This document shows, piece after piece, positions 10,198-63,123 of a stretch of DNA of 64,000 bases. The position numbers and the translations under genes are program-made. The notes below the pieces were generated by a model. It was not told the DNA's origin, ran no database searches, and worked only from the letters and a program-made list of their open reading frames with translations. Position 1 is the first letter of the stretch, and the number at the start of each line of letters is the position of its first letter. This DNA comes from Escherichia coli (lineage in GTDB: Bacteria > Pseudomonadota > Gammaproteobacteria > Enterobacterales > Enterobacteriaceae). The DNA is taken from assembly GCF_003790525.1 (NCBI RefSeq), contig NZ_CP033635.1. One strand, 5' to 3'.

Positions 10198-10203
10198 CTG
10201 CGG

Positions 10204-11235
10204 TTAGTCGCTGGTTGCATGATGACTTGCCTCCAGCGACGGAGTTGACACTGAATGGCGACGTACCAGCGTCGGACTAAAGACATTAGTGATTTCCGGG
10301 AGAGGGCGATTATCCGCCAGCGCCAAAGCCAGTTCGGCAGCCTGCGTCGCCATCGTCACGATTGGGTAACGCACGGTGGTCAGACGCGGACGCACATAGC
10401 GTGACACCAGCACATCATCAAAGCCAATTAACGAAATCTCACCCGGTACATCAATACCATTATCATTGAGAACGCCCATCGCGCCCGCCGCCATTGAATC
10501 GTTATAACAGGCTACCGCAGTGAAATTTCTTCCTCGTCCCAAAAGCTCGGTCATTGCCTGTTCACCGCCGCTTTCGTCTGGTTCGCCAAATGTCACCAGC
10601 CGATCATTGGTCGGAATACCACTTTCAGCAAGGGCATCGTAATACCCTTGCAGACGATCTTCGGCGTCAGAAATAGAGTGGTTAGAGCACAGATAACCAA
10701 TGCGGGTATGACCTTGCTGAATTAAATGACGCGTTGCCAGCCAGGCACCGTAACGATCGTCCAGAGCAATACAACGGTTTTCAAAGCCAGGCAGGATACG
10801 GTTGATCAGCACCATACCGGGCATTTGTTTCATTAATGAGGCTAAATCGGCATCCGGGATCATTTTGGCATGGACAACCAGCGCAGCACAGCGATGGCGG
10901 ATCAGTTGCTCAATGGCCTGACGCTCTTTTTGTTCGTTGTGGTAACCGTTGCCAATCAATAAAAAATTACCAGTGTGATAAGCCACCTGTTCGACCGCTT
11001 TCACCATTGCACCGAAAAACGGATCGGAAACATCACCAACGACCAGACCGACCGTTTCAGTGGTCTGCTGCGCCAGCGCACGGGCGTTGGCGTTCGGGTG
11101 ATAGCTAAGAGACTCCATTGCACTATGCACAGCAAGCCGGGAAGCTTCGCTGGCTTTGGGTGAATTATTAATGACGCGGGAAACGGTGGCGACTGAAACG
11201 CCTGCCAGTCGGGCTACATCCTTTATGGTCGCCAT
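10204..11235 (-). CDS. galR: Galactose operon repressor (LacI family)
   Basis: 343-aa ORF MATIKDVARLAGVSVATVSRVIN... with LacI-type HTH. Confidence 0.9.
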   Translation of the reverse strand: MATIKDVARLAGVSVATVSRVINNSPKASEASRLAVHSAMESLSYHPNANARALAQQTTETVGLVVGDVSDPFFGAMVKAVEQVAYHTGNFLLIGNGYHNEQKERQAIEQLIRHRCAALVVHAKMIPDADLASLMKQMPGMVLINRILPGFENRCIALDDRYGAWLATRHLIQQGHTRIGYLCSNHSISDAEDRLQGYYDALAESGIPTNDRLVTFGEPDESGGEQAMTELLGRGRNFTAVACYNDSMAAGAMGVLNDNGIDVPGEISLIGFDDVLVSRYVRPRLTTVRYPIVTMATQAAELALALADNRPLPEITNVFSPTLVRRHSVSTPSLEASHHATSD

Positions 11236-11448
11236 GAAAATACCTTAGTGGGTAAACGCTTACATTCTTTCAGTGTTACGGAAAACGCCCGTTGGTTCAA
11301 GGGGGGGCGTGTTTTCATCGTGGGAATGTGAGCCAAACGCAAATAAGTAAGACAAAAAAAGAGATTGCAAACCTTTGGTTACACTTTGCGAAACGCTGTT
11401 GCGATTGACCGCTGGTGGCGTTTGGCTTCAGGTTGCTAAAGTGGTGAT

Positions 11449-11530
11449 CCCAGAGGTATTGATAGGTGAAGTCAACTTCGGGTTGAGCACATGAATTACA
11501 CCAGCCTGCGCAGATGCGCAGGTTTTTTTT
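11449..11530 (+). ncRNA. omrB: OmrB small RNA
   Basis: Starts CCCAGAGGTATTGATAGGTGAAGTC..., ends with GC-rich hairpin GCGCAGATGCGCAGG plus a T-run; shares 5' and 3' ends with the copy about 200 bp downstream; sits between galR and aas as in K-12. Confidence 0.85.
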
Positions 11531-11645
11531 TGCCGGTCATCAATCTGTAACAGTAACCGACAATTTACACACCTCGTTGCATTTCCCTTCATTCCTTTGC
11601 GTTTTCTCGCTGGCGAAGAGTCGTTGTGCAGACCACAATCAAGAT

Positions 11646-11733
11646 CCCAGAGGTATTGATTGGTGAGATTATTCGGTACGCTCTTCGTACCCTGTCTCTT
11701 GCACCAACCTGCGCGGATGCGCAGGTTTTTTTT
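11646..11733 (+). ncRNA. omrA: OmrA small RNA
   Basis: Starts CCCAGAGGTATTGATTGGTGAGATTATTCGG..., ends with hairpin GCGCGGATGCGCAGG plus a T-run; paralog of omrB. Confidence 0.85.
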
Positions 11734-11799
11734 CGCACCTAATTTACTGTCGCTCGCGTTCTTTATCTCGTGTAATCTCCCTCCATTCGCTTTTACTGA

Positions 11800-15166
<3,367 letters not shown>

Positions 15167-17017: not shown

Positions 17018-18058
17018 TCACGGTGCCGGATACGTATAAACCTGATGCACCGCTTCAATTTCAGCTAATACGTCTTCGCTTAACTCCAGATGCAAACTTT
17101 CGACGTTAGTTTTCAGCTGCTCCATCGTGGTTGCGCCCAGCAGAGTGCTGGCAACAAACGGTTGACGGCGTACAAAAGCGAGCGCCATCTGAGCAGGATC
17201 CAGGCCATGACGTCTGGCGATATCAACATACGCCGCGACGGCTTTTTGCGTTTGCTCACCGCTATAGCGGGTGAACCGACTAAAGAGCGTATTACGTGCG
17301 CCAGCGGGTTTTGCACCATTGAGATATTTCCCGGTCAGCGTGCCGAAACCCAGGCACGAATAGGCCAGCAGTTCGACCCCTTCATACTGACTGACTTCTG
17401 CCAGACCTACTTCAAAACTGCGGTTTAACAGACTGTAGGGATTTTGAATGGTGACAATACGCGGCAGATCGTGTTTGTCCGCCAGATGCAGGTAGCGCAT
17501 TACGCCAAATGCAGTTTCGTTCGACACGCCGATATAACGAATTTTTCCCGCGCGTTGGTACTCTGCCAGTGCGTCCAGTGTATCCAGCAGCGAAACCGCA
17601 GGCGCAGAATCTGTCCAGCTATAACCGAGTTTGCCGAAGCAGTTGGTTGGGCGCTGCGGCCAGTGCACCTGATAGAGATCGAGGTAATCAGTCTGCAGAC
17701 GCTTGAGGCTGTCATGCAGCGCTTCGCGGATATTCTTCCGATCCAGCGCCTGATCCGGGCGGATGCCTTTGTCATTATTGCGCGACGGTCCGCTCACTTT
17801 GGAGGCGATAATTAACTTTTCGCGGCTGCCATGTTTCGCCAGCCAGTTGCCGACGTAGGTTTCGGTTAGCCCTTGAGTTTCGGGGCGCGGAGGTACTGGG
17901 TACATTTCGGCAACGTCGATAAGGTTAATGCCCTGAGCGACGGCATAGTCGAGTTGTGCGTGGGCGTCGGCTTCGCTGTTCTGTTCACCAAACGTCATCG
18001 TGCCAAGCCCCAGCGTGCTGACTTCCAGCGAACTGTGGGGTATACGGTGATATTGCAT
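17018..18058 (-). CDS. tas: NADP(H)-dependent aldo-keto reductase
   Basis: 346-aa ORF MQYHRIPHSSLEVSTLGLGTMTFG...; matches K-12 Tas. Confidence 0.9.
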   Translation of the reverse strand: MQYHRIPHSSLEVSTLGLGTMTFGEQNSEADAHAQLDYAVAQGINLIDVAEMYPVPPRPETQGLTETYVGNWLAKHGSREKLIIASKVSGPSRNNDKGIRPDQALDRKNIREALHDSLKRLQTDYLDLYQVHWPQRPTNCFGKLGYSWTDSAPAVSLLDTLDALAEYQRAGKIRYIGVSNETAFGVMRYLHLADKHDLPRIVTIQNPYSLLNRSFEVGLAEVSQYEGVELLAYSCLGFGTLTGKYLNGAKPAGARNTLFSRFTRYSGEQTQKAVAAYVDIARRHGLDPAQMALAFVRRQPFVASTLLGATTMEQLKTNVESLHLELSEDVLAEIEAVHQVYTYPAP

Positions 18059-19993: not shown

Positions 19994-20149
19994 GTCACGA
20001 TACCTTGGTTAAAAAACAAACAGCAATTATGTGCCGAATATTCGCAGTGTAACTTTTTCCACAGGCGTTGTTCAATTCTCTGATTTATATTGCTTTTTAG
20101 GTTGCCGGTAATCGAGTTGCGCAACACTGCAATGGGTTTTCCAAATCTG

Positions 20150-20540
20150 GTCACTGAAAATAAACAGGATCTTACACCATGTTATCCACAGAAAGCTGGG
20201 ATAACTGTGAAAAACCTCCACTACTGTTTCCATTTACAGCCTTGACGTGCGACGAAACTCCAGTTTTTAGTGGTTCAGTGCTTAACTTAGTGGCACATTC
20301 TGTGGATAAATACGGCATTGGTTGATCTTTCGCCAACCCGTAAATGAGAGGTGTGACCTGGGTCACGAATTACTCTTTTTTATTACTAAAATTACATGTA
20401 ATGCATTGACTGATAATGAATATTTTAAAATGTCCATATCGGGCTTATTCAGAATGCTCCGGGTTTTCCCGTAGTAATTCCGTAGTTCTTCACAACTCTA
20501 TCCACAGAAAAGGTGAATAAAAACGGCTATCCACCCCTTC
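20150..20540. promoter_or_regulatory. DARS2-like DnaA-box cluster in the mutH-rppH intergenic region
   Basis: Perfect DnaA boxes TTATCCACA at 20182-20190 (+) and 20301-20309 (-), near-consensus CTATCCACA at 20498-20506, inside a ~680-bp AT-rich non-coding gap; DARS2 is reported at this locus in K-12. Confidence 0.5.
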
Positions 20541-20677
20541 CTCTGTTTATAACTCTGCACATAACTGTGAGTTATTCAATTGTTATTAGTGTGTAATGCC
20601 CTGCAGAGAGTGGTTTACCGTCTTCCTGGAGTATGAAACAATCATTCGTATATAAAGCTTTATTTTGAGGTAGTCCG

Positions 20678-21208
20678 GTGATTGATGACGATGGCTACCG
20701 CCCAAACGTAGGTATCGTGATTTGTAATCGCCAGGGGCAGGTAATGTGGGCCCGGCGATTTGGTCAGCACTCCTGGCAATTTCCGCAAGGCGGAATCAAC
20801 CCCGGAGAATCCGCAGAGCAGGCGATGTACCGTGAATTGTTTGAAGAAGTAGGATTAAGCCGTAAAGACGTTCGAATCCTTGCTTCAACGCGTAACTGGT
20901 TGCGCTACAAATTACCGAAACGTTTGGTGCGTTGGGACACGAAGCCGGTTTGTATCGGCCAAAAACAAAAATGGTTTCTCTTGCAGCTGGTGAGCGGCGA
21001 TGCAGAAATCAATATGCAAACCAGCAGTACACCAGAGTTTGACGGCTGGCGATGGGTAAGTTACTGGTATCCGGTCAGACAGGTGGTGTCATTTAAACGT
21101 GATGTCTACCGTAGAGTAATGAAAGAGTTCGCGAGTGTGGTGATGTCACTGCAGGAAAATACGCCAAAACCACAAAACGCATCTGCTTATCGACGTAAAA
21201 GAGGTTAA
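20678..21208 (+). CDS. rppH: RNA pyrophosphohydrolase (Nudix)
   Basis: 176-aa ORF, GTG start, Nudix box [22 protein letters not shown]. Confidence 0.9.
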
Positions 21209-40645: not shown

Positions 40646-41899
40646 ATGTCAGGATCCAACACTGCAATCAGCCGTCGTCGTTTACTGCAAGGCGCGGGTG
40701 CCATGTGGCTATTGAGCGTAAGTCAGGTCAGCCTGGCTGCGGTCAGCCAGGTCGTGGCGGTGCGCGTCTGGCCTGCGTCCAGCTACACCCGCGTGACGGT
40801 AGAATCTAATCGTCAGCTGAAATATAAGCAGTTCGCGTTGAGTAATCCTGAACGCGTGGTGGTGGATATCGAAGATGTAAACCTGAACTCGGTGCTCAAG
40901 GGGATGGCTGCGCAAATCCGCGCTGACGACCCGTTCATCAAGTCGGCGCGCGTCGGGCAATTTGACCCGCAAACCGTACGTATGGTTTTTGAATTAAAGC
41001 AAAACGTAAAACCGCAGCTGTTTGCCCTTGCGCCGGTCGCCGGGTTTAAAGAGCGTCTGGTGATGGATCTCTATCCTGCCAATGCACAGGATATGCAGGA
41101 CCCGCTGCTGGCGCTGCTGGAGGATTACAACAAAGGCGACCTCGAAAAGCAGGTGCCGCCAGCACAAAGTGGTCCACAACCGGGTAAAGCTGGGCGGGAT
41201 CGTCCGATTGTCATTATGCTTGACCCTGGTCACGGTGGCGAAGACTCCGGTGCGGTGGGGAAATACAAAACACGCGAAAAAGACGTAGTATTGCAAATAG
41301 CTCGCCGTCTGCGCTCTCTGATCGAGAAAGAGGGCAATATGAAGGTGTACATGACGCGCAATGAAGACATCTTCATTCCGTTGCAAGTGCGCGTAGCAAA
41401 AGCCCAGAAACAGCGTGCTGACTTGTTTGTCTCTATCCATGCCGACGCCTTTACCAGTCGCCAGCCGAGCGGTTCCTCGGTGTTTGCGCTCTCAACCAAA
41501 GGCGCAACCAGTACTGCGGCAAAATATCTGGCACAAACCCAGAACGCCTCGGACTTGATTGGTGGCGTAAGCAAAAGCGGTGACCGCTATGTCGACCACA
41601 CTATGTTCGATATGGTGCAGTCGCTGACCATTGCTGACAGCCTGAAGTTTGGTAAAGCGGTGCTGAATAAGCTCGGTAAAATCAACAAGCTGCATAAAAA
41701 TCAAGTTGAACAGGCCGGGTTTGCCGTACTAAAGGCACCAGATATTCCCTCCATTCTGGTCGAAACGGCGTTTATCAGTAACGTTGAGGAAGAGCGTAAA
41801 CTGAAAACGGCGACTTTCCAGCAGGAAGTTGCGGAGTCTATTCTTGCGGGAATTAAAGCGTATTTTGCCGATGGGGCGACGCTGGCGAGAAGGGGATAA
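40646..41899 (+). CDS. amiC: N-acetylmuramoyl-L-alanine amidase AmiC (Tat-exported)
   Basis: Internal ATG at 40646 gives [23 protein letters not shown] (twin-arginine signal); amidase_3 C-terminal domain. Confidence 0.9.
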
Positions 41900-42070
41900 T
41901 GTTTTTATTTATTCAATGAATTTATATTTCGTTGAATAGATAACATTTACCTGAATATTAGACGCTGGTTTTGTGACTGATGTCGGATATTTGAATGTCG
42001 GCTTGAAAAATAAGCCGACCATCTCTTTAATTAAGCACAATTCCGTGTAATGTATACGCATTAGTTAATC

Positions 42071-42145
42071 ATCTTGTAACTGTTAAATCAGGCAAGGCAA
42101 TGTTTGAAGTAATCATTACTTCTGACGTGCCTTGCCTTTTTTTTT
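42071..42145 (+). promoter_or_regulatory. RAT-like element overlapping an intrinsic terminator in the leader of the islet antiterminator gene
   Basis: CTTGTAACTGTTAAATCAGGCAAGGC resembles BglG/SacY-type RAT sequences (TTGTTACTG...CAGGCAAAACC); it overlaps the 5' arm of an extended hairpin (GGCAAGGCA 42091-42099 / TGCCTTGCC 42128-42136, with inner GAAGTAAT/ATTACTTC pairing) followed by nine Ts; GGAG lies about 8 bp before the ATG at 42157. Confidence 0.55.
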
Positions 42146-42156
42146 GGAGCCATGAA

Positions 42157-42981
42157 ATGATCATCGAAAAAGTCATGAACAATAATTGTGTACAGGCATC
42201 GATGAATGGACAGGAGGTTATCATTTCTGGGCCTGGCGTCGGTTACAACAAAAAATATGGAATGTCGGTCCCTGAGCATCCGGCTAACCGGATTTTTTAT
42301 GTCAGAAATGAACAAAAAAATAAACTCTACAAATTGATTGAACATGTGGATATTGAGTATGTTTTTGTTGCCGAAAAAATAGTGCAATATGCGGAGAACA
42401 ATCTCGAAAAAAATCTCAATCCATCGCTACTATTGATTCTTGCTGATCACATTTCGAATGCAATATCCCGAGTCGCTTCAGGCATACAAATTAATAATGT
42501 TTTCCTTGATGAAATCAAAGCGTTGTACAAAGCAGAGTATGCGATAAGTCGCGATGCATTAACTATCATTAATGAGCAATTCAGCGTTCAACTTCCTGAT
42601 GATGAGATTGGTTTTATAGCATTGCATATTTTAAATAATTATGAAAATTCAGTTGATTATGAATCAGTACGGATTATTGAGTTGTCGCAAATAATCACGG
42701 GGCTTATTGAAGTTGTTTATAACAGAAAGGTGGACAGAAGTTCATTTAATTATTCCAGGTTCATGATACACCTTAAATATTTTTCAAGTCGCGTATTATG
42801 TAATGAAAAGATAAAACAAAAAGATATTGGTGACATCTATGAGCAGTTTCTTGAGAAAGACATCCTGTTACAGCGCGCAATTCATGAAATTGAACGGTAT
42901 CTGTATGCCACTTTTAAATATGAATTAATTTTAGAAGAAAAACTATATCTCTCAATTCGTACCAAAGTATTAATGGACTAA
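42157..42981 (+). CDS. BglG/LicT-family PRD-containing transcription antiterminator
   Basis: ORF track 42100..42981; start taken at the ATG at 42157; N-terminal CAT-like region (IEKVMNNNCVQASMNGQEVIISGPGVGY) and PRD regions with conserved His contexts (LPDDEIGFIALHIL, RFMIHLKYFSSRV) resembling BglG (LPKDEVGFIAMHL, RLVTHLKFLSWRI). Confidence 0.8.
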   Translation: MIIEKVMNNNCVQASMNGQEVIISGPGVGYNKKYGMSVPEHPANRIFYVRNEQKNKLYKLIEHVDIEYVFVAEKIVQYAENNLEKNLNPSLLLILADHISNAISRVASGIQINNVFLDEIKALYKAEYAISRDALTIINEQFSVQLPDDEIGFIALHILNNYENSVDYESVRIIELSQIITGLIEVVYNRKVDRSSFNYSRFMIHLKYFSSRVLCNEKIKQKDIGDIYEQFLEKDILLQRAIHEIERYLYATFKYELILEEKLYLSIRTKVLMD

Positions 42982-43012
42982 TTATATATAACATTTATAT
43001 GAGATAACCCAC

Positions 43013-44593
43013 ATGAAACAAAAGAAAGCCTGGAGTTTTTTTCAGAGCCTGGGAAAGGCATTCATGTATCCCATTGCTCTGCTAAGTGTATGTGGCATGA
43101 TGCTAGGGCTGGGAAGTGGTTTAGCCAGTGATGATATGGCAAAGTTAATTCCATTTCTGGCTATTCCAATAATTAAAACCATACTTGATTTCATTGTTAG
43201 TCTTGGTTTGTTTGCCTTTGTTAATTTACCTGTATTGTTTGCGATAGCGATTCCCTTAGGATTATTAAAAGATAAAGAGGATAAAGCCTATGGTGCTTTT
43301 TCTGGCTTAATTGGTTTTATGGCGATGCATCTGGGAACGAACTTTTATCTTAAACAGCACGACTTATTGGTCGCTGCTGACCAAATGTCGACACATGGGC
43401 AAACCATCATTCTGGGGATCCAGTCCTACAATACCAGCGTGTTAGGGGGAATTGTTGCTGGGTTATTAGTCGCCAGCATGTATAAAAAGATCGTTAATTT
43501 ACGCATTCCTGAATCATTAGGTTTTTATAGCGGCCCACGTCTGGTGCCTATCATTACACTGATTGTGATGAGTGGATTTGGTCTGATCATCCCTTTTATC
43601 TGGCCGCCGTTTTTCAATCTTTTCATGCTCATTGGCCACTGGATTTCAACTTCCGGTCCTGTTGGCTATTTTTTCTATGCAGTCGCCGAACGCGTGACGA
43701 TACCTTTTGGTTTAAATCACCTGGTGACGTCAGTTTTCCGCTTTACCCCCATCGGCGGATCGGCAGTGATCGGCGGCGAAGAGTATTATGGCACCCTGAA
43801 CATGTTTATGGCGTACGTCAAAGAGAATGCGGTCATTCCGCTGGATTTGGCGGGGAAAATGGAACAGGGCAAACTGATGATTCAGTATGGTCTGGCTGGT
43901 GCCGCGCTGGCGATGTATCGCACTGCTCATGCTCAAAACAGAAAAGCTATCAAAGCATTGCTTATTTCCGGGGTGCTTACAGTCATTATTGGCGGCGTCA
44001 GCGAACCGATTGAGTTTCTGTTCTTATTTGTCAGTCCACTGCTGTTTGTCTTCCATGCATTTATGAATGGATTCGCCAACATGGTCTTGCCATATATGGG
44101 CGTGAAGATGGGATTTACTGGCGATCTGATTCAATTTATTAGCTTTGGCGTATTGCGTGGCACAAGAACAGGTTGGCCAATAGCGGTGTGTGTCGAAGTG
44201 GCCTATTTCTTTATTTATTACTTTGTGTTCCGTTGGACTATTCTCAAATTTAACCTGATGACGGTAGGCCGTGAAGAGTCCAGTCCTGTCACGCTGAACG
44301 CTCATGAGGATACGGCTATAGCGGATATCCCAACTCCTGATAAATCAGAGCTGCAAGCGGCGGAGCAGATGGTTAAGGCACTTGGTGGTAAAGAGAATAT
44401 TAAGTCACTGGATAATTGCGTAACTCGTTTACGTTTAACAATCGCAGATATGGGATTGCTTGACGAGGCTGCAATAAAAAGAGCCGGCGGAATTGCGGTT
44501 GTTAAACTTGATCAAAATACCCTACAAGTCATTATCGGTACTAAAGTCATCGCCTTGCGTCGGGATATGGATAACTACATGGGGATATGCTGA
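43013..44593 (+). CDS. PTS glucose-family EIICB component, MalX-like
   Basis: 526-aa polytopic ORF with C-terminal EIIB motif NCVTRLR; collinear similarity to K-12 MalX (SYDLGKAFMYPIALLS vs FQQLGKTFMLPVALLS; EPIEFLFLFVSP vs EPLEFLFLFVAP). Confidence 0.85.
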   Translation: MKQKKAWSFFQSLGKAFMYPIALLSVCGMMLGLGSGLASDDMAKLIPFLAIPIIKTILDFIVSLGLFAFVNLPVLFAIAIPLGLLKDKEDKAYGAFSGLIGFMAMHLGTNFYLKQHDLLVAADQMSTHGQTIILGIQSYNTSVLGGIVAGLLVASMYKKIVNLRIPESLGFYSGPRLVPIITLIVMSGFGLIIPFIWPPFFNLFMLIGHWISTSGPVGYFFYAVAERVTIPFGLNHLVTSVFRFTPIGGSAVIGGEEYYGTLNMFMAYVKENAVIPLDLAGKMEQGKLMIQYGLAGAALAMYRTAHAQNRKAIKALLISGVLTVIIGGVSEPIEFLFLFVSPLLFVFHAFMNGFANMVLPYMGVKMGFTGDLIQFISFGVLRGTRTGWPIAVCVEVAYFFIYYFVFRWTILKFNLMTVGREESSPVTLNAHEDTAIADIPTPDKSELQAAEQMVKALGGKENIKSLDNCVTRLRLTIADMGLLDEAAIKRAGGIAVVKLDQNTLQVIIGTKVIALRRDMDNYMGIC

Positions 44594-45768
44594 TGGATGT
44601 TTTTAATACTCCTATTTCCCGCAAAGGAACATATTGTACCCAATGGGACTTTTGCGAGGACAGATTTGGTGTAAAAGATGTATTACCATTCTCTATTTCA
44701 GATATGGATCTTCCGATACCAGACGCTATCACCAGAGCATTAAAAAAACGTCTGGAACACCCGATTTTAGGGTACAGCCGTTGGCAGCATGATGACTATC
44801 TGAATGCGATAGTCAATTGGTATCATCAACAATATAAAACTGAAATCAAACCAGAATGGATCACCTATAGCCCAAGCGTGATGTACTCCATTGCTAAAGC
44901 AATAGAGTTATTGACATCGCATGGTGATAATATTCTCGTTTTTACACCTGTCTATAATGCATTTTTTGATATAATTAAACATAGCGAGAGAAATATTCTG
45001 ACAGCCTCTTTGATTATAAAAAATGAGGGGGGCTACGCTATCAATTGGCAAGATTTTGATCTTAAGATTCAAAGCGCAAAGATGGTGTTATTATGTAATC
45101 CTCATAACCCGACAGGAACAGTCTGGTCGGAAGAAGAACTGCATAAAATCGCTGCAAGCTGTACAAGGCATAATGTCTGGTTATGTTCAGATGAAATCCA
45201 TAGTGATTTTGTTTTTAATCGTAGCTTTACATCCGCGCTTAAAATAAAAAAAGAAAAAGTAGTAGTATTTAACTCGATATCGAAAACATTTAATGTTCCT
45301 GCACTAACAGGATCGTATATGATTTCAACTGACGATAATTTTAATCATAAGTTCAGAACGATATCGAGGTATCGCGATTTTGTAAACTCCCCATCAGTAC
45401 TGAATATAATTGCAACTATTATTGCCTATAACGAATGTGAGGGATGGTTAAAGTCATTAAAGGCACATATTGCCTCTAACATTCAATTCACCCAGCAGTA
45501 TCTGAACGAAAACACTCCAGAATTGATCGTAAGGCCAGCTGATGGTTGCTATTTTTCGTGGATAGATTGCTCTGCTATTGGTTATCCCTTTGATGAATTC
45601 TACAGTCGATTAATTCATGAAGGCAAAGTGGGCATTATGGCGGGGAATGTCTATGGAACGGAGGGGGAGGGCTACCTTCGTCTGAACCTGGCCTGCGGTC
45701 GAGAAAAATTATATATGGGGCTTACGCGTCTTGCGAGTGTAATTAAAAATATTAATCAAGGAAAATAA
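44587..45768 (+). CDS. PLP-dependent C-S lyase / aminotransferase class I-II, MalY-like
   Basis: 393-aa ORF overlapping the PTS stop; GTYCTQWDF vs MalY GTWCTQWDY; PLP-lysine context SISKTFNVPALTG vs MalY SGSKSFNIPALTG. Confidence 0.85.
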   Translation: MLMDVFNTPISRKGTYCTQWDFCEDRFGVKDVLPFSISDMDLPIPDAITRALKKRLEHPILGYSRWQHDDYLNAIVNWYHQQYKTEIKPEWITYSPSVMYSIAKAIELLTSHGDNILVFTPVYNAFFDIIKHSERNILTASLIIKNEGGYAINWQDFDLKIQSAKMVLLCNPHNPTGTVWSEEELHKIAASCTRHNVWLCSDEIHSDFVFNRSFTSALKIKKEKVVVFNSISKTFNVPALTGSYMISTDDNFNHKFRTISRYRDFVNSPSVLNIIATIIAYNECEGWLKSLKAHIASNIQFTQQYLNENTPELIVRPADGCYFSWIDCSAIGYPFDEFYSRLIHEGKVGIMAGNVYGTEGEGYLRLNLACGREKLYMGLTRLASVIKNINQGK

Positions 45769-45770
45769 AA

Positions 45771-46367
45771 ATGAACAGCACGGATCTTATCCATCTCATT
45801 AAACATTTTATGCGTAACGAACATAAAGCAGTTGAAGAAGTTATTGATTCCCCCCTTTCGGAGGTCGCAAATTTAATTAAAGTATTACAGTCTTGTCAGG
45901 GGAAAGTTGTTTTTATTGGTGTCGGTAAGTCCGGTATTATTGCCCGAAAACTCGCCGCAACATTTGCCAGCACTGGAACTCCCTCGTTTTTTGTTCACGG
46001 TACGGAAGCGGTACACGGCGACCTTGGAATGGTGGCGAAAGACGATGTTGTTATTCTTATTTCAAACAGTGGTGAGACGGCGGAAATCCTGGCGACACTG
46101 CCTAGTCTGAAAAAAATGGGTAATTATTTGATCTCTTTTACACGCAGTCATCACTCATCGCTTGCGATAAGTTGTGATTTATCCGTTGAAATTCCCGTAA
46201 AAAGTGAGGCGGATAATTTAGGTTTAGCGCCGTCATGCTCATCAACAGTCGTTCTGGTTGTTGGTGATGCGGTGGCGCTTGCGCTCTCCGAATTGAAAAA
46301 GTTTACTCGTGCTGATTTCGGCTTATATCATCCAGGAGGTGCGCTCGGTATTAAAGCAAACTCATAA
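45771..46367 (+). CDS. SIS-domain sugar-phosphate isomerase (KdsD/GutQ-like, no CBS domains)
   Basis: 198-aa ORF; GVGKSGIIARKLAATFASTGTPSFFVH and LISNSGETAEIL closely resemble the SIS core of arabinose-5-phosphate isomerases. Confidence 0.75.
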   Translation: MNSTDLIHLIKHFMRNEHKAVEEVIDSPLSEVANLIKVLQSCQGKVVFIGVGKSGIIARKLAATFASTGTPSFFVHGTEAVHGDLGMVAKDDVVILISNSGETAEILATLPSLKKMGNYLISFTRSHHSSLAISCDLSVEIPVKSEADNLGLAPSCSSTVVLVVGDAVALALSELKKFTRADFGLYHPGGALGIKANS

Positions 46368-46429
46368 TTTCAAAATATAAATACAGTAACCGGTCACGCC
46401 ATCTTTTGGGGTGGCGTTCTTTGAAGTGA

Positions 46430-47386
46430 GTGTCAGCTATGAAAAATGTTCTGGTCACCGTCCCCAGCTTTTCAGCACGCTGTGTTTCCGCCAGCAAGTT
46501 GCTAAGAGAGAATAATTTTAATCTTATTATTAAGAATAATGTGGAGCATCTGCTTAAATCAGAATCCACTGCATTACGAGAATCTATTTGCGCGGTCATC
46601 GCCGGAAAAGATTGTTATCAGGCGGACACGCTATCATTGCTGTCTGGTGTGAAAATAATATCGAGATTCGGGACGGGGATAGACAATATTGATCTTCGTG
46701 CGGCACAGCAATCCGGTATTGTTGTCAATAATGCGGTTGGGATTAATTCAAATGCGGTTGCGGAATTTATCATTGGACTTATCTTCGCGAGCATGAGAAA
46801 TATCCCCGGTAGCTATCATGCGATGCAAAATGGTTATTGGGGCGAGTCGCATGGCTGCGAGTTACAAGGTAAACGTATTGGCCTGCTTGGCTACGGCAAT
46901 ATTGGCAAAACACTGGCGAAAAGGTTATCTGGTTTTGATGTTGAGCTTTTAGCTTTTGACAAACAACCCGATTTCCAGGCCGCAGGCAAAGATGGAGTTC
47001 AGTTCGTATCAATTGAAGATATCTTTATGCAGTCTCATGTCATCATCGTTCTTTTGCCATTTTCTCCGGAGCTGGAGAACTTCATTAGTCATAAATATTT
47101 GTCGATGATGCGCAATGGTGCTCTGATCATCAACGCCGCAAGGGGAAAGTTGCTGGATGAGGGTGCTTTACTTCAGGTAATTGAAGAACGAAATGTTTTT
47201 GCAGCACTGGATGTGTTTAGCTCTGAACCGCTAGCGCAATTTAGCCCATTGCTACATGCCAAGAATATCATTACAACGCCGCATATTGCGGCCGCCACCG
47301 TTGAGTCATACCAGCAAACCGGGATATACGTTGCCCAGTCGATAATTGATTACTTCGCAGGAAGGGAGATAAAAAACGTGCTGTGA
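46430..47386 (+). CDS. D-isomer-specific 2-hydroxyacid dehydrogenase family protein (NAD-binding)
   Basis: 318-aa ORF with dinucleotide-binding motif GLLGYGNIGKTLAKRL and family-typical C-terminal TPHIAAAT. Confidence 0.75.
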   Translation: MSAMKNVLVTVPSFSARCVSASKLLRENNFNLIIKNNVEHLLKSESTALRESICAVIAGKDCYQADTLSLLSGVKIISRFGTGIDNIDLRAAQQSGIVVNNAVGINSNAVAEFIIGLIFASMRNIPGSYHAMQNGYWGESHGCELQGKRIGLLGYGNIGKTLAKRLSGFDVELLAFDKQPDFQAAGKDGVQFVSIEDIFMQSHVIIVLLPFSPELENFISHKYLSMMRNGALIINAARGKLLDEGALLQVIEERNVFAALDVFSSEPLAQFSPLLHAKNIITTPHIAAATVESYQQTGIYVAQSIIDYFAGREIKNVL

Positions 47387-47411
47387 GTTCAGCTAAGGAA
47401 TATTTCAGGTA

Positions 47412-47445
47412 CAAAAAAACCGCAATTTGTGAAACACATTGCGGT
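47412..47445 (-). terminator. Intrinsic terminator of the metZWV tRNA operon
   Basis: On the minus strand, hairpin ACCGCAAT/ATTGCGGT followed by a U-run, immediately 3' of the last tRNA copy. Confidence 0.5.
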
Positions 47446-47464
47446 TTATCAGCATCATAAGTGT

Positions 47465-47541
<77 letters not shown>

Positions 47542-47575
47542 TCACCGTACTGCTTTTACTTCATCAAATTTTGAT

Positions 47576-47652
<77 letters not shown>

Positions 47653-47685
47653 TCACCGTACTGCTTTACTTCATCAAATTTTAAT

Positions 47686-47762
<77 letters not shown>

Positions 47763-47970
47763 TCCGTGGATGCGCACTATACTCTGCTCGCGTTTTCATG
47801 CAACCTTTTTTTTACCCCGATCACGGATTTGGCATGATTTTGAACAAAAACAAATCACTAAAGCCTATTTTTTGTGCAAAATTTGCGTCGGGGAGAGGCT
47901 GCTCATTTCATTAAACGCGGCGGTTTGTTATCTTCGTTGCGCCTTATTTTTTAACCTGAAGAAGAGAACA

Positions 47971-59436: not shown

Positions 59437-60753
59437 TCAGTTAGTTGCCGTTTGAGAACGGAAACGGGCAAAGATAAAGATGACTGCGAAGCAGAGTGCG
59501 GGGATCAGTTCAGCTGTGGGGATGTTGCCCGCAGCGTCACTGACAAAACCCATGACCGGAGTGACAATACCGCCGCCAATAATGGTCATAACGATGAAGG
59601 ACGAACCGTATTTGGTGTCCTGGCCGAGATTCTTAATGCCCAGCGAGAAGATTGTTGGGTACTGAATCGACATAAAGGCACTGCATAAAGTCAGGGCTAT
59701 TAAACCCACATGACCGCCAGCGAAGGCTGAGATCAGGCACAGTGCCATAGCAATTAATGCGTAGGCTGCCAGGACTTTGTGTGGTGCGAAGCGACTGATG
59801 AGCCAGGTACCGGTGAAACGACCAATAAAGAAGCACACCATGGTTCCGGTTAAATAGTTAGCGGCAAAGCCTGCTGTCATACCTGGAATTTCTTCTACAG
59901 CGTAGCGAATTAAATAGCTCCAGCAGGCCGTTTGTGCGCCAACGTAGCAGAATTGCGCTAATACTGCCCAGCGCCAGTGGCGAATACGCGCCAGGCGAGA
60001 AAGCGATGCGGAGAACGATCCTTGTTTGGCGTCACTGTGATTATCACTCTGCAATGCCGGGAATTTCGTCAGCATGATCAGCAGGGCGACCAGTAACACG
60101 ATAGCCACGATGATCATATAAGGTGTCTGTACCGATAATACCAGGCTGTGTTTATACGCACTCAATTGCTCTGGAGACATTTTATCGAGAACGTCTTGCG
60201 ATTGATGTGGCACGTTAGACAAAATAAGACTTTGCCCAAAGACAACCGCGATAATTGCGCCAAATGAGTTAAATGTTTGCGCAAGATTTAAGCGGAAGTG
60301 ACCACTGCTTTCCGGCCCTAATACCGTAACAAAAGGGTTTGCGGCAGTTTCCAGACAACCTAATCCGGCTGCAATAATAAATAGGCCAACTAAAAACAAG
60401 GTGTAGTTCATTATTTCTGCGGCGGGCCAGAATAATGCAGCGCCGAAGGCATATAAAAACAATCCGGTAATAATCCCTGCTTTATAACTGAGTTTTTTCA
60501 TCAATATCCCGGCAGGGATTGGGATAATGAAATAACCAAAGTAAAAGGCCGATTGGATCAGGCCAGCCTGGAAATTTGTCAGCGTAAAAGCCTGCTGGAA
60601 TTGAGGCAATAAAATGTCGTTAAGGTTATTGGCTACCGCCCAAAGAAAAAACAGTGAGCACAGCAGTGCAAATGGAATAATGTAACTTCTGCTTTGCCCT
60701 GCATCTTTATCTACCGCACGGTAACTCTGCGTTTGTATTGATGTGTTTCCCAT
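59437..60753 (-). CDS. fucP: L-fucose:H+ symporter (MFS)
   Basis: 438-aa polytopic ORF; first gene of the fucPIKUR operon. Confidence 0.9.
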   Translation of the reverse strand: MGNTSIQTQSYRAVDKDAGQSRSYIIPFALLCSLFFLWAVANNLNDILLPQFQQAFTLTNFQAGLIQSAFYFGYFIIPIPAGILMKKLSYKAGIITGLFLYAFGAALFWPAAEIMNYTLFLVGLFIIAAGLGCLETAANPFVTVLGPESSGHFRLNLAQTFNSFGAIIAVVFGQSLILSNVPHQSQDVLDKMSPEQLSAYKHSLVLSVQTPYMIIVAIVLLVALLIMLTKFPALQSDNHSDAKQGSFSASLSRLARIRHWRWAVLAQFCYVGAQTACWSYLIRYAVEEIPGMTAGFAANYLTGTMVCFFIGRFTGTWLISRFAPHKVLAAYALIAMALCLISAFAGGHVGLIALTLCSAFMSIQYPTIFSLGIKNLGQDTKYGSSFIVMTIIGGGIVTPVMGFVSDAAGNIPTAELIPALCFAVIFIFARFRSQTATN

Positions 60754-61299
60754 AGCATCCTCTTAGGTTCAGAAGCTTAAGCACGTAATCGGTTATGTTT
60801 TCAAAAGTGCAAAACCAGCGAGTTCGGGCTTCATATCAGTAAATATTTGCCTGTCTGAAATGAACTCATGGATTCATTTTCAAATAAAAAACGCTCTGTA
60901 ATATGACGGCGGTCACACTTATTAGCCGGAAGGTGACTTTATGTGACTACCATCACTTTAATAATCGAAATTTCATGCCCGTTTCAGAAAATAAATCATA
61001 AAAAACACAAACCAGATGACCGTATTAATTGTTTGTGCCGAAAACGGGCATTCCTGGCAGGGAAGAGTAGAAAAATGACCGTTTTGATAAATATTTTTAA
61101 GAGCGGTCATTTTTAATGGGGTTATAAAAAGAGAAATTGCAGTTATTTACTGTGATTAGTTGAACCAGGTCACAAAATATAAGCTTGTGAATTTCTTTCT
61201 GGTTAATCAGGAAGAATATGGTGAGTAATTAAACGGCTAATTCAATAGTGTGAAAGGAACAACATTATTGCCCTGTTTTGAATCAGAGAGAGGTAGCTA

Positions 61300-61947
61300 A
61301 TGGAACGAAATAAACTTGCTCGTCAGATTATTGACACTTGCCTGGAAATGACTCGCCTGGGGCTGAACCAGGGGACAGCGGGTAACGTCAGTGTACGTTA
61401 TCAGGATGGGATGCTGATTACGCCTACAGGTATTCCATATGAAAAACTGACGGAGTCGCATATTGTCTTTATTGATGGCAACGGCAAACATGAGGAAGGA
61501 AAACTCCCCTCAAGCGAGTGGCGTTTCCATATGGCGGCCTATCAAAGCAGACCGGATGCCAACGCGGTTGTTCACAATCATGCCGTTCATTGTACGGCAG
61601 TTTCCATTCTTAACCGACCGATCCCCGCTATTCACTACATGATTGCGGCGGCTGGCGGTAATTCTATTCCTTGCGCGCCTTATGCGACCTTTGGAACACG
61701 CGAACTTTCTGAACATGTTGCGCTGGCTCTCAAAATTCGTAAGGCAACTTTGTTACAACATCATGGGCTTATCGCTTGTGAGGCGAATCTGGAGAAAGCG
61801 TTATGGCTGGCGCATGAAGTTGAAGTGCTGGCACAACTTTACCTGACGACCCTGGCGATTACGGACCCGGTGCCAGTGCTGAGCGATGAAGAGATTGCCG
61901 TAGTGCTGGAGAAATTCAAAACCTACGGGTTACGGATTGAAGAGTAA
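61300..61947 (+). CDS. fucA: L-fuculose-1-phosphate aldolase
   Basis: 215-aa ORF MERNKLARQIIDTCLEMTRLGLNQGTAGNVSVRY... Confidence 0.9.
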   Translation: MERNKLARQIIDTCLEMTRLGLNQGTAGNVSVRYQDGMLITPTGIPYEKLTESHIVFIDGNGKHEEGKLPSSEWRFHMAAYQSRPDANAVVHNHAVHCTAVSILNRPIPAIHYMIAAAGGNSIPCAPYATFGTRELSEHVALALKIRKATLLQHHGLIACEANLEKALWLAHEVEVLAQLYLTTLAITDPVPVLSDEEIAVVLEKFKTYGLRIEE

Positions 61948-61974
61948 TTTCGTAAAGCAACAAGGAGAAGGATG

Positions 61975-63123
61975 ATGGCTAACAGAATGATTCTGAACGA
62001 AACGGCATGGTTTGGTCGGGGTGCTGTTGGGGCTTTAACCGATGAGGTGAAACGCCGTGGTTATCAGAAGGCGCTGATCGTCACCGATAAAACGCTGGTG
62101 CAATGCGGCGTGGTGGCGAAAGTGACCGATAAGATGGATGCTGCAGGGCTGGCATGGGCGATTTACGACGGCGTAGTGCCCAACCCAACAATTACTGTCG
62201 TCAAAGAAGGGCTCGGTGTATTCCAGAATAGCGGCGCGGATTACCTGATCGCTATTGGTGGCGGTTCTCCACAGGATACGTGTAAAGCGATTGGCATTAT
62301 CAGCAACAATCCGGAGTTTGCCGATGTGCGTAGCCTGGAAGGGCTTTCCCCGACCAATAAACCCAGTGTACCGATTCTGGCAATCCCCACCACAGCAGGT
62401 ACTGCGGCAGAAGTGACCATTAACTACGTGATCACTGACGAAGAAAAACGGCGCAAGTTTGTTTGCGTTGATCCGCATGATATCCCGCAGGTGGCGTTTA
62501 TTGACGCTGACATGATGGATGGTATGCCTCCAGCGCTGAAAGCCGCGACGGGTGTCGATGCGCTCACTCATGCTATTGAGGGGTATATTACCCGTGGCGC
62601 GTGGGCGCTAACCGATGCACTGCACATTAAAGCGATTGAAATCATTGCTGGGGCGCTGCGAGGATCGGTTGCTGGTGATAAGGATGCCGGAGAAGAAATG
62701 GCGCTCGGGCAGTATGTTGCGGGTATGGGCTTCTCGAATGTTGGGTTAGGGTTGGTGCATGGTATGGCGCATCCACTGGGCGCGTTTTACAACACGCCAC
62801 ACGGTGTTGCGAACGCCATCCTGTTACCGCATGTCATGCGCTATAACGCTGACTTTACCGGTGAGAAGTACCGCGATATCGCGCGCGTTATGGGCCTGAA
62901 AGTGGAAGGTATGAGCCTGGAAGAGGCGCGTAATGCCGCTGTTGAAGCGGTGTTTGCTCTCAACCGTGATGTCGGTATTCCGCCACATTTACGTGATGTT
63001 GGTGTACGCAAGGAAGACATTCCGGCACTGGCGCAGGCGGCACTGGATGATGTTTGTACCGGTGGCAACCCGCGTGAAGCAACGCTTGAGGATATTGTAG
63101 AGCTTTACCATACCGCCTGGTAA
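61975..63123 (+). CDS. fucO: L-1,2-propanediol oxidoreductase (lactaldehyde reductase, iron-containing ADH)
   Basis: ORF 61972..63123; start at the second ATG (MANRMILNETAWFGRGAVG...). Confidence 0.9.
   Translation: MANRMILNETAWFGRGAVGALTDEVKRRGYQKALIVTDKTLVQCGVVAKVTDKMDAAGLAWAIYDGVVPNPTITVVKEGLGVFQNSGADYLIAIGGGSPQDTCKAIGIISNNPEFADVRSLEGLSPTNKPSVPILAIPTTAGTAAEVTINYVITDEEKRRKFVCVDPHDIPQVAFIDADMMDGMPPALKAATGVDALTHAIEGYITRGAWALTDALHIKAIEIIAGALRGSVAGDKDAGEEMALGQYVAGMGFSNVGLGLVHGMAHPLGAFYNTPHGVANAILLPHVMRYNADFTGEKYRDIARVMGLKVEGMSLEEARNAAVEAVFALNRDVGIPPHLRDVGVRKEDIPALAQAALDDVCTGGNPREATLEDIVELYHTAW

Follow-up and report, generated by a model that had tools for sequence, protein, structure and literature searches.

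The AT-rich five-gene islet between amiC and metV of Escherichia coli is the known c3405-c3410 PTS operon, predicted to be controlled by RNA antitermination and probably an old resident of its site

What is the AT-rich block of five genes that separates amiC from the metZWV tRNA operon in some Escherichia coli genomes, how might it be controlled, and how did it come to lie there? We addressed these questions in a 64-kb stretch of DNA (the window), which is 100% identical to E. coli SMS-3-5. As the initial annotation had expected, the islet is absent from K-12, where amiC and metV are separated by a 73-bp spacer only; in the window, this whole spacer is replaced. Downstream of the amiC stop codon (41897-41899), five intact, co-directional genes follow one another on the plus strand with gaps of 31, -1, 2 and 71 nt (Table 1). 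This tight packing had been described before, and only two start codons required revision: the RefSeq start of the lyase gene is the ATG at 44593, which has one base in common with the EIICB stop codon (44587 being an upstream in-frame ATG), and the dehydrogenase gene starts at 46439, with GTG 46430 as an alternative. The AT-richness is borne out by the GC content of 40.6% (41900-47464) versus 51.5% in the remaining window, a value below every one of 190 islet-sized windows elsewhere (minimum 48.5%, mean 51.7, sd 1.4), and by a GC3 of 0.34-0.46 in the islet genes versus 0.55-0.64 in the flanking genes. A hairpin in the left spacer (41997-42019; -13.3 kcal/mol, z = -3.6) is probably the amiC terminator. 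On the right, the terminator hairpin of the metZWV operon (z = -2.5 on the plus strand) may also stop the islet transcript; it is likewise present in the Nissle strain (EcN), just ahead of a 14-nt tRNA remnant.

Table 1 Features of the amiC-metV interval and its right flank (window coordinates)
Feature	Position	Strand	Basis
Islet-specific left spacer	41900..42071	+	no sequence common with the 73-bp K-12 spacer
RAT element, predicted CAT-domain binding site	42072..42099	+	sequence pattern
Intrinsic terminator	42090..42146	+	hairpin 42090-42137, then nine T
LicT/GlcT/BglG-type PRD antiterminator, 274 aa	42157..42981	+	NCBIfam, Pfam
ExPEC 'PAI marker / malX' PCR target (RPAi-f, RPAi-r)	42858..43779	+	primer mapping
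PTS EIICB, glucose family, MalX-like, 526 aa	43013..44593	+	NCBIfam, Pfam PTS_EIIC and EIIB
PatB/MalY-family PLP-dependent C-S beta-lyase, 391 aa	44593..45768	+	TIGR04350, Pfam Aminotran_1_2
SIS-only KpsF/GutQ-type sugar-phosphate isomerase (c3406-type arabinose-5-phosphate isomerase), 198 aa	45771..46367	+	PDB match, KdsD model
D-isomer-specific 2-hydroxyacid dehydrogenase (phosphoglycerate-dehydrogenase-like), 315 aa	46439..47386	+	Pfam 2-Hacid_dh and 2-Hacid_dh_C
metZWV tRNA operon terminator hairpin, T7 tail	47413..47447	-	fold -16 kcal/mol, z = -3.6
metV, initiator-type tRNA-Met, islet right boundary	47465-47541	-	ARAGORN, Rfam tRNA, K-12 annotation
metW, initiator-type tRNA-Met	47576-47652	-	ARAGORN, Rfam tRNA, K-12 annotation
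metZ, initiator-type tRNA-Met	47686-47762	-	ARAGORN, Rfam tRNA, K-12 annotation

The initial annotation had named no characterised E. coli operon with this gene combination, but the block is already known. It is c3405-c3410, the amiC-proximal end of PAI-CFT073-metV in uropathogenic strain CFT073, where it occupies the same locus and the same amiC-adjacent position as in SMS-3-5. Previous work placed c3405-c3410 in this island, labelled it a maltose/glucose PTS and named SMS-3-5 as retaining it (PMC2831201). Moreover, the RPAi primers, widely used for the 'malX / PAI marker' in ExPEC virulence genotyping (PMC4376973), lie inside the islet and enclose 922 bp comprising the 3' end of the antiterminator gene and the 5' part of the EIICB gene, and the crystal structure PDB 5UQI/5VHU matches the SIS protein along its entire length at 97% identity; the Nissle copy is identical to that chain. 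Judging from these primers and this structure, together with the SMS-3-5 match and the published placement, we conclude that the block is not new. An isomerase from the CFT073 island is also named in the title of a 2011 paper. The five SMS-3-5 proteins share 95.6-99.8% identity with the Nissle (B2) copy. While the SMS-3-5 islet abuts metV directly, B2 strains carry a T6SS island of ~27 kb between the islet and metV. A substrate, inducer or phenotype of the operon is not established in the literature found.

Among 100,044 species representatives, 13 orthologous loci were recovered. The order antiterminator-EIICB-lyase-SIS is kept in all of them, including Clostridioides difficile, whose locus CD630_30270-30310 is annotated as antiterminator, malX, malY, phosphosugar isomerase and EIIA (PMC4026244). 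Identities between the C. difficile and islet proteins amount to 68% for EIICB (CD630_30300), 49% for the lyase, 52% for the SIS protein and 38% for the antiterminator; unlike the islet, the C. difficile locus has its own EIIA gene and lacks the dehydrogenase. Of the six Firmicute species recovered, four (C. difficile, Terrisporobacter, Clostridium sp. KNHs214 and Massilicoli) have an EIIA-Glc-like gene next to the locus, called as PTS_EIIA_1 in C. difficile and by an N-terminus similar by eye in the other three; none was seen in Enterococcus termitis, where the contig breaks off right behind the SIS gene. Among the 13 loci, the dehydrogenase occurs only in the clade of E. coli, E. whittamii, Atlantibacter and Citrobacter and is absent from Enterobacter and from every Firmicute locus recovered. 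It is an enterobacterial add-on outside the conserved core. Outside the enterobacteria, the EIICB, the lyase and the isomerase have their closest relatives in Firmicutes. With its low GC, these nearest outside relatives and the same core operon in C. difficile, a foreign origin as proposed initially is plausible, and the module may stem from a low-GC, Firmicute-like source.

All five protein families had been named correctly, as judged by HMM and Pfam searches (CAT_RBD with PRD, PTS_EIIC with EIIB, Aminotran_1_2, a KdsD/KpsF-like SIS domain and 2-Hacid_dh). The EIICB reaches 539 bits against TIGR02004, under the cut-off of 632, and its EIIB motif C469-V-T-R-L-R is invariant. Its homologues fall into orthologues of at least 60% identity and generic MalX-type proteins of at most 46%, with an empty gap between. 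Because the EIICB contains no EIIA domain, its phosphate donor in E. coli is presumably the housekeeping EIIA-Glc (Crr); the EIICB would import and phosphorylate a putative glucoside-like compound. One could regard the islet as a second maltose/glucose PTS, i.e., a paralogue of K-12 malX-malY whose lyase-like protein is a regulator, as MalY is on MalT. This is how public annotation labels the system, MalX models are the best NCBIfam matches, and in K-12, too, a glucose-family EIICB without EIIA stands beside a PatB/MalY-type C-S lyase. However, the islet shares only 42% (MalX) and 36% (MalY) identity with this pair, remains under both MalX cut-offs and is much more similar to a discrete Firmicute orthologous group (62-71% identity). 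Furthermore, K-12 malXY is governed by the LacI-type repressor MalI instead of an antiterminator and has neither isomerase nor dehydrogenase, whereas the additional isomerase of the islet is conserved in 13 of 13 loci. We know of no MalT-type target in the Firmicutes that carry the module and consider a malXY paralogue very unlikely.

The lyase exceeds the TIGR04350 cut-off (368.8 versus 340 bits) and aligns end to end with the MalY structure 1D2F, including the SxSK PLP-lysine motif. The SIS protein matches the KdsD model (E = 4e-58) and aligns to the KdsD structure 2XHZ (E = 1e-40), yet consists of the SIS domain alone, while GutQ, KdsD and KpsF have tandem CBS domains. Some sources annotate it as arabinose-5-phosphate isomerase. 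The dehydrogenase stays under every NCBIfam equivalog cut-off. It is not obvious where an arabinose-5-phosphate isomerase would fit in after a hexose-type EIICB, and its role could be regulatory instead of catabolic. Along these lines, the isomerase might supply arabinose 5-phosphate, either for signalling or as a Kdo/capsule precursor, with the lyase moonlighting in cysteine/sulfur metabolism and ordinary sugar uptake coupled to both. GutQ of the gut/srl glucitol operon sets a precedent: like the islet SIS protein, this paralogue is an arabinose-5-phosphate isomerase inside a sugar PTS operon without an obvious catabolic role, and a signalling or Kdo/capsule role has been proposed for it. A passage of PMC10101034, citing Cech 2017, calls the Gram-positive enzyme a regulator of carbohydrate transport/metabolism, and C. 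difficile MalY is a cysteine desulfhydrase in vitro and reported to be essential (PMC6143707). Against this, Firmicutes with the operon isomerase are not known to make Kdo, and the strict four-gene synteny over two phyla, like the lyase-isomerase fusion ORFs that occur now and then, suggests that the steps are linked; members of the PatB family also stand last in PTS operons of three different PTS families, suggesting that they process the imported compound. We regard a signalling or precursor role as rather unlikely. In the reading that we prefer, a functional unit for sugar uptake, the lyase and an arabinose-5-phosphate/ribulose-5-phosphate isomerase would belong to one conserved unit and, as a working guess, might act on a sugar that bears an amino-acid moiety of the cysteine or serine type and channel carbon into the pentose-phosphate pathway. 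The dehydrogenase would be a later enterobacterial addition acting on a 2-hydroxy or 2-oxo acid. The single lyase-isomerase-dehydrogenase pathway envisaged initially is unproven, and its last enzyme lies outside the conserved core.

We then turned to the regulation of the operon. The antiterminator matches NCBIfam LicT with E = 6e-67 (score 226 against an equivalog cut-off of 300), and Pfam detects CAT_RBD, a strong PRD1 and a weak PRD2 (E = 0.033). His98, His157 and His205 are invariant across nine orthologues, and the residue matching LicT His269 is an arginine in the islet clade; C. difficile retains all four PRD histidines. Because PRD2 is weak and one of its histidines is replaced by arginine, HPr-dependent control may differ from LicT. 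The pattern TTGTWACTG-N-CAGGCA has a single match in the 64 kb (42074-42094; 0 expected by chance), confirming the RAT-like element noted initially ahead of the genes. Alone, the RAT folds weakly (-6.3 kcal/mol); it is kept in EcN and Citrobacter and nearly kept in Atlantibacter and Enterobacter. The strong terminator hairpin (-35.3 kcal/mol, z = -4.1), whose 5' arm overlaps the 3' half of the RAT, is structurally conserved in six sequences with two compensatory pairs. In C. difficile, the same type of RAT-terminator unit precedes the EIICB gene, but there it comes after the antiterminator gene and is repeated four times. The operon promoter would be expected in the left spacer, but a sigma-70 consensus scan gave no plus-strand site upstream of the RAT.

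This arrangement resembles BglG/SacY/LicT/GlcT systems such as E. coli bgl or B. subtilis licS and ptsG in its CAT-PRD1-PRD2 protein, in its RAT overlapping an intrinsic terminator and in that the operon also encodes the cognate EII. The terminator to be controlled precedes the antiterminator gene, as it does in bgl; unlike in bgl-type systems, no second terminator precedes the EII gene, with just 31 nt available there, and the islet antiterminator falls under all equivalog cut-offs of this family and lacks the second PRD2 histidine. From the CAT and PRD domains, the PRD histidines, the unique RAT overlapping a terminator, the compensatory changes and the C. difficile counterpart, we infer that the operon is switched on by RNA antitermination. 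The elements are evident in the sequence itself, and the mechanism is modelled on the BglG/LicT family. Transcription would start upstream of 42072 and stop at the terminator by default. When the cognate sugar is transported, the EIICB would cease to phosphorylate PRD1 (His98/His157), and the antiterminator would then dimerise, bind the RAT and block the overlapping terminator. The resulting read-through of all five genes, including that of the antiterminator, would amount to positive autoregulation.

The islet is carried by 1689 of 5426 complete E. coli genomes (31%). A census of the junction in these 5426 genomes found it empty in 3501 (64.5%), occupied by the islet adjoining metV in 595 and by the islet plus the T6SS island in 956. 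This frequent absence would suit a non-functional relic heading for loss, as would an IS3 insertion in one strain (H29) and a remnant at the site in HS-02, which is unannotated, has 27% GC and shares ~70% identity with the islet. Yet in 1686 of the 1689 carriers the match covers 80% or more of the query, five intact ORFs are present in the annotated or translated carriers SMS-3-5, EcN, E. whittamii and E69, and the leader structure is conserved. Moreover, dN/dS is 0.02-0.14 for each gene; all five are under purifying selection. A relic is thus disfavoured and hardly credible, and the decay considered initially does not agree with these values.

How did the islet reach its site? Since metV is a known island site, the initial annotation had suggested an insertion there. 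Accordingly, an integrase could have put a tRNA-targeted island into metV within E. coli, with the integrase and repeats since lost. The islet is AT-rich, variably present and abuts the metV 3' end, the complete K-12 spacer is replaced, and the five genes are found in Citrobacter directly beside the 3' end of a tRNA-Asp, in the same orientation, hence two tRNA sites are occupied. As already noted initially, however, no integrase was found among the window ORFs and no metV 3'-end repeat at the left border (best local score 14 versus a shuffle mean of 13.4). The same five genes also lie between amiC and metV in E. whittamii, in E69 (a divergent lineage labelled E. coli) and in Atlantibacter hermannii, with dS similar to that of the flanking amiC and mltA. 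In Nissle, 14 nt left over from the metV 3' end stand between the islet and the T6SS island, and an intact metV lies at the far end of the latter; because of this attachment-site remnant on its metV side, the Nissle islet is outside the repeat-bounded, integrated element. Insertion into metV within E. coli therefore appears distinctly unlikely. The different tRNA neighbour in Citrobacter shows that at least one relocation of the block has taken place. Should the dS values reflect its true age in Escherichia, the islet has a surprisingly un-ameliorated GC3.

Taken together, our analysis is best explained by the known c3405-c3410 operon being a RAT-regulated functional unit for a PTS sugar and an old resident of the amiC-metV site; we put the probability of this joint reading at about 0.85. 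The cross-phylum synteny of the core, the dehydrogenase add-on, the purifying selection, the shared site in E. whittamii and Atlantibacter and the placement relative to the Nissle T6SS island are newly found here. The islet, which roughly two in three E. coli genomes lack, would be selectively maintained in Escherichia; in B2 strains, the T6SS island would have integrated later at metV, beside it. Both RPAi primers match EcN exactly, while the SMS-3-5 allele has one mismatch to RPAi-f (42858-42879) and four to RPAi-r (43758-43779); with these mismatches, the 'PAI marker' PCR might fail on this allele.

The segment between amiC and metV (41900-47465) is identical (100%) to that of E. coli SMS-3-5 (NC_010498.1), where the same five genes are annotated between amiC and three tRNA-Met genes. 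The five ORFs delineated in the initial annotation were thus recovered in both our ORF table and that record, and family searches agreed with the gene families it had named. The genes are separated, in order, by gaps of 31, -1, 2 and 71 nt. As had also been remarked, the islet is AT-rich relative to its flanks, with 40.6% GC against 51.5% in the remaining window; the lowest value among 190 equal-sized windows outside it was 48.5%, and it forms the sole extended low-GC stretch of the 64 kb. Two short dips to a GC fraction of 0.42-0.45 lie beside ORFs that by eye resemble the core genes mutH-rppH and fucP-fucA. Both seem to fall in intergenic or regulatory DNA, with no further accessory DNA evident. 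An Rfam search of 41800-47900 at a permissive threshold matched the three tRNAs only, the leader being matched by no curated family. A hairpin in the gap between the SIS and dehydrogenase genes was rejected as a terminator, as it scored no better than shuffled sequence.

Positions of islet features and of related features in the window and other genomes
Feature	Sequence	Position	Remark
Antiterminator gene	window	42157-42981	ORF table
EIICB gene	window	43013-44593	ORF table
Lyase gene	window	44593-45768	ORF table; second in-frame ATG at 44587
SIS protein gene	window	45771-46367	ORF table
Dehydrogenase gene	window	46439-47386	ORF table; GTG also at 46430
RAT core motif	window	42074-42094	
Hairpin of RAT alone	window	42072-42097	-6.3 kcal/mol
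Terminator hairpin	window	42090-42137	followed by nine U
Overlap of RAT and terminator hairpin	window	42090-42099	
RPAi primer match	window	42858-42879	1 mismatch
RPAi primer match	window	43758-43779	4 mismatches
CRP half-match (rejected)	window	~41973-41988	
Hairpin tried as terminator (rejected)	window	46396-46417	z = -0.43
GC dip	window	20001-21000	
GC dip	window	60001-62000	
14-nt copy of metV 3' end	L002 (E. coli Nissle)	17567-17580	
tRNA-Asp beside the five genes	L009 (Citrobacter freundii)	10848-10924	
Tandem RAT-terminator units	L010 (C. difficile)	5999-6330	
Two ORFs 3' of the EIIA gene	L025 (Terrisporobacter mayombei)	10085-11833	
Unannotated stretch at the amiC-metV site	L026 (E. 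coli HS-02)	4678-8789	

The absence of the islet from K-12, which had been expected from the known gene layout, was confirmed: in MG1655, amiC is followed by a 73-bp spacer and metV. This spacer shares no sequence with either islet border, so that a simple deletion or insertion is unreadable from the junctions. Across 5426 complete E. coli genomes, the islet is present in 1689 (31.1%; 1686 at 80% or more of its length), while 3501 (64.5%) show the K-12-type empty junction. It abuts metV as in SMS-3-5 in 595 genomes, and the junction from the dehydrogenase gene to type VI secretion (T6SS) genes seen in E. coli Nissle occurs in 956. PLSDB yielded no plasmid copy; one plasmid place was counted among E. 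coli assemblies. At the amiC-metV site of E. coli HS-02 (NZ_CP172818.1), 4.1 kb of 27% GC without any annotated feature align to the islet at ~70% identity and with 696 gaps, and the proteins of the flanking genes are 98.6-100% identical. This stretch reflects either very unusual local decay or an assembly or polishing artefact.

The locus is already known, catalogued accessory DNA. "c3405-c3410, PTS system, maltose/glucose specific" was described in 2010 as a block inside PAI-CFT073-metV and as retained in all UPEC examined, E2348 and SMS-3-5 (PMC2831201). The initial statement that no characterised E. coli operon matches this gene combination therefore does not hold: the islet corresponds to c3405-c3410, contains the RPAi marker and encodes a 5UQI-like SIS protein. 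What stands of that reading is an accessory, foreign-looking, putatively self-regulated block absent from K-12; its cataloguing, partial characterisation and use as a marker had been missed. Deletion of c3405-10 reportedly led to a fitness defect in the mouse bladder in the work of Lloyd et al. in 2009.

EIICB is a glucose-family PTS protein closest to MalX models, with EIIC followed by EIIB models matching; its cluster representative (98% identical) carries PF02378 and PF00367, and the phosphorylatable-cysteine motif of EIIB, C469-V-T-R-L-R (C-x-T-R-L-R), is invariant in five orthologues. The protein scored 538.8 on TIGR02004 and 525.5 on NF007509, below the respective cut-offs of 632.2 and 665. 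It shares 42% identity with K-12 MalX and 68% with C. difficile CD630_30300, which is annotated as malX. Judging from the sub-cut-off scores and the 42% identity, the name 'malX' thus denotes resemblance and not orthology. The primers RPAi-f and RPAi-r, which define the 'PAI marker' by a 930-bp product, have published sequences (PMC4376973), and other papers pair "malX" with the phrase "pathogenicity island marker". In Nissle both primers have exact matches that span 922 bp, running from the antiterminator gene's 3' end into the EIICB gene; in SMS-3-5 they match at two sites with mismatches. The marker amplicon covers parts of an antiterminator gene and of the gene for a transporter with only 42% identity to K-12 MalX, and hundreds of epidemiological studies have scored this islet as the ExPEC "malX / PAI marker", its function not known to them.

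How the islet came to lie beside metV can be approached from its borders and relatives. In keeping with the initial remark that neither an integrase nor a convincing direct repeat is visible, no ORF or annotation for an integrase lies between amiC and metV in SMS-3-5, and neither at the left border nor within the islet did any stretch resemble the metV 3' end more than chance allows: the best local match scored 14, shuffled sequences averaged 13.4, and 474 of 1000 shuffles did at least as well as the real one. Traits of tRNA-associated islands that are present comprise the atypical GC content, the position abutting the metV 3' end and the variable presence among strains. Atlantibacter hermannii carries the five genes between amiC and metZWV-mltA, and its islet proteins share 68-85% identity with their SMS-3-5 counterparts, which lies within the 66-93% spanned by the flanking core proteins. 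Relative to E69, a divergent lineage labelled E. coli, and to E. whittamii, the islet genes have synonymous divergences of 0.20-0.67, a range that brackets the values of amiC and mltA (0.33-0.43), and dN/dS is 0.02-0.14 for all five genes.

In Nissle, the dehydrogenase stop is followed by the same terminator hairpin as in SMS-3-5 and then by 14 nt, TGGTTGCGGGGGCC, that repeat the 3' end of metV; T6SS genes come after this copy, and the intact metV lies ~27 kb further on. The copy is the scar left at the attachment site by the T6SS island, for which no integrase is annotated in the stretches viewed. As this scar sits between the islet and the T6SS genes, the T6SS island entered metV when the islet was already present, and the islet lies outside it; the marked block was there before the integrated T6SS island and adjoins it without being part of it. 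The proposal that the islet itself inserted into metV is not borne out by the divergence from E69, E. whittamii and Atlantibacter or by the Nissle junction; an old neighbour of metV was probably misread as an insertion. In Citrobacter freundii, the five-gene block stops ~50 nt short of the 3' end of a tRNA-Asp gene that lies on the opposite strand, apparently in the dnaQ-aspV region by gene content, and the block has therefore moved at least once. This adjacency mirrors that to metV in E. coli, where aspV is also a T6SS island site. In our reading, the islet was acquired long ago from a low-GC donor, has since resided here under purifying selection and has been lost or replaced in most E. coli lineages, although its un-ameliorated GC3 counts against great age.

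Upstream of the genes, the motif TTGTWACTG-N(3-9)-CAGGCA, which we take to be the core of the ribonucleic antiterminator (RAT) consensus, has its only match in the window, with 0 expected by chance. The RAT alone folds into a weak hairpin and overlaps a much stronger one, the 121-nt leader reaching -35.3 kcal/mol (z = -4.1). The 3' half of the RAT doubles as the 5' arm of the terminator hairpin, which is the standard arrangement of BglG/SacY (LicT-type) antitermination, with a RAT overlapping an intrinsic terminator upstream of the genes. Nissle, E69, E. whittamii, Atlantibacter and Citrobacter all retain this element, and two base pairs of the terminator stem show compensatory changes among them. 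Family searches identify the antiterminator as LicT/GlcT-like, with an RNA-binding CAT_RBD (Pfam, residues 1-55, E = 2.7e-14) plus regulatory PRD domains. PRD1 is strong (E = 1.6e-23) with both of its histidines conserved; PRD2 is only marginal in Pfam (E = 0.033) and keeps the equivalent of LicT His207. Across nine orthologues, three of the four canonical PRD histidines never vary, and the equivalent of LicT His269 is an arginine in the E. coli/Atlantibacter/Citrobacter clade, the one that carries the dehydrogenase.

Since its gene lies downstream of the terminator, the antiterminator is predicted to be autoregulated; by analogy, read-through would be sugar-dependent and under control of the cognate EII. 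A sigma-70 consensus scan found no + strand promoter upstream of the RAT, and a CRP half-match spotted by eye was judged too weak. The predicted regulatory logic of the islet is well supported by sequence, its metabolic logic not. In C. difficile, the gap between the antiterminator and EIICB genes holds, upstream of the latter, four tandem RAT-plus-terminator units with a period of ~104 nt, each formed by GGATTGTAACTG..CAGGCAAAACC, then a hairpin and a run of T, whereas the E. coli islet has a single unit. Such serial terminators would demand very efficient antitermination.

The lyase is a predicted C-S β-lyase of the PatB/MalY type. It scored 368.8 on TIGR04350 (PatB-family C-S lyase; cut-off 340), shares 36% identity with K-12 MalY, and its SISK motif lines up with SGSK in MalY (structure 1D2F), the motif that holds the PLP lysine. 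Within Escherichia, it is the most divergent of the islet genes, with 86% protein identity to the E69-type allele compared with 97% for EIICB, and its dN/dS of ~0.14 is the highest of the five. E. coli islets fall into two classes of allele and, over their whole length, are 91.5-100% identical to that of SMS-3-5. Within the more divergent class (86% identical), proteins of 550-592 aa from some E. coli and Shigella (P0122-P0125, P0129 and P0130) join lyase (Aminotran_1_2) and SIS in a single ORF; these could be real fusions or frameshift errors.

The SIS protein shows a KdsD/KpsF-like SIS domain (KdsD model, E = 3.9e-58), aligns to the KdsD structure 2XHZ and is 97% identical across all 198 residues to the chain in PDB 5UQI/5VHU, with which the Nissle copy is identical. 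The tandem CBS domains are absent, as the protein ends at residue 198 and covers positions 36-201 of 328 in the KdsD model; on TIGR00393 it scored 191.4 (cut-off 203.7). Some sources name it arabinose-5-phosphate (A5P) isomerase, and it is predicted to be a KpsF/GutQ/KdsD-type A5P isomerase lacking CBS domains. CFT073 c3406 was reportedly found by Mosberg et al. in 2011, in a paper whose title names an isomerase of this CFT073 island, to be an active A5P isomerase without CBS domains. Assignment as a MurQ-type etherase, FrlB-type deglycase or 6-phospho-3-hexuloisomerase was rejected at ~30-52 bits against 197 on KdsD. The last gene encodes a D-2-hydroxyacid dehydrogenase, closest to phosphoglycerate dehydrogenases and below all equivalog cut-offs.

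Among EIICB homologues in a search of 5.8 billion proteins, identity falls from at least 60% to at most 46%, and this sharp drop defines a small orthologous group. Scanning one genome per species over 100,044 species with two conserved peptides yielded 13 loci, a lower bound given that only two peptides were queried. Six are enterobacterial (E. coli E69, E. whittamii, Atlantibacter hermannii, two Citrobacter and one Enterobacter) and seven come from Firmicutes (three C. difficile-group genomes, Clostridium sp. KNHs214, Terrisporobacter mayombei, Massilicoli timonensis and Enterococcus termitis). The order antiterminator-EIICB-lyase-SIS is kept in all 13, and the dehydrogenase is added only in the E. 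coli/E. whittamii/Atlantibacter/Citrobacter group. An EIIA-Glc-like gene is adjacent in four of six Firmicute species and absent from the enterobacterial loci; E. coli EIICB therefore presumably uses Crr, the housekeeping EIIA-Glc. Directly 3' of the EIIA gene in Terrisporobacter mayombei, two ORFs have N-termini that by eye resemble split transketolase halves, which, if so, would be in line with a pentose-phosphate link. Outside the enterobacteria, the SIS protein is closest to SIS-only proteins of Firmicutes, and to our knowledge Firmicutes make no Kdo. The islet core belongs to a small, sharply bounded operon family common to C. difficile and a few other gut Firmicutes.

In Firmicutes, this core comprises only a transporter, a C-S β-lyase and an A5P/ribulose-5-phosphate isomerase, with no glycosidase, kinase or aldolase. 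Outside the orthologous group, the nearest PatB relatives, from Clostridium intestinale, Neobacillus drentensis, Granulicatella and Virgibacillus (loci L011, L028, L029 and L030), are 42-48% identical to the islet lyase and encoded by the last or near-last gene of PTS operons of differing families (glucose, fructose and lactose/cellobiose types), two of the four with M20, M24 or M42 peptidases. The content of the Firmicute core, the place of PatB at the ends of PTS operons and the joint lyase-SIS ORFs suggest the imported compound as the target of the lyase; this compound may be a sugar joined to a residue of the cysteine or serine type. In a speculative scheme, to which we assign a probability of only about 15%, the core would be an undescribed PTS catabolic route in which a PLP β-lyase, not a glycosidase, frees a sugar phosphate from a cysteine/serine S/O-conjugate or glyco-amino-acid, and the isomerase passes it to the pentose-phosphate pathway. 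As an alternative, the isomerase may supply A5P as a signal, for which GutQ is a precedent, with the lyase moonlighting in cysteine metabolism; the C. difficile MalY orthologue is a cysteine desulfhydrase in vitro and reported to be essential (PMC6143707). The literature on the c34xx genes, PAI-metV and malY of C. difficile yielded no substrate or phenotype.

If true, the β-lyase route would explain the 30-year-old pairing of malX with malY, as well as why PatB homologues end varied PTS operons, often together with peptidases. The antitermination leader offers a direct reporter for finding the inducer. The wider question raised by the islet is why C-S lyases travel with PTS transporters; should the β-lyase route hold, the 'malX marker' would mark the use of a specific host- or diet-derived conjugate.
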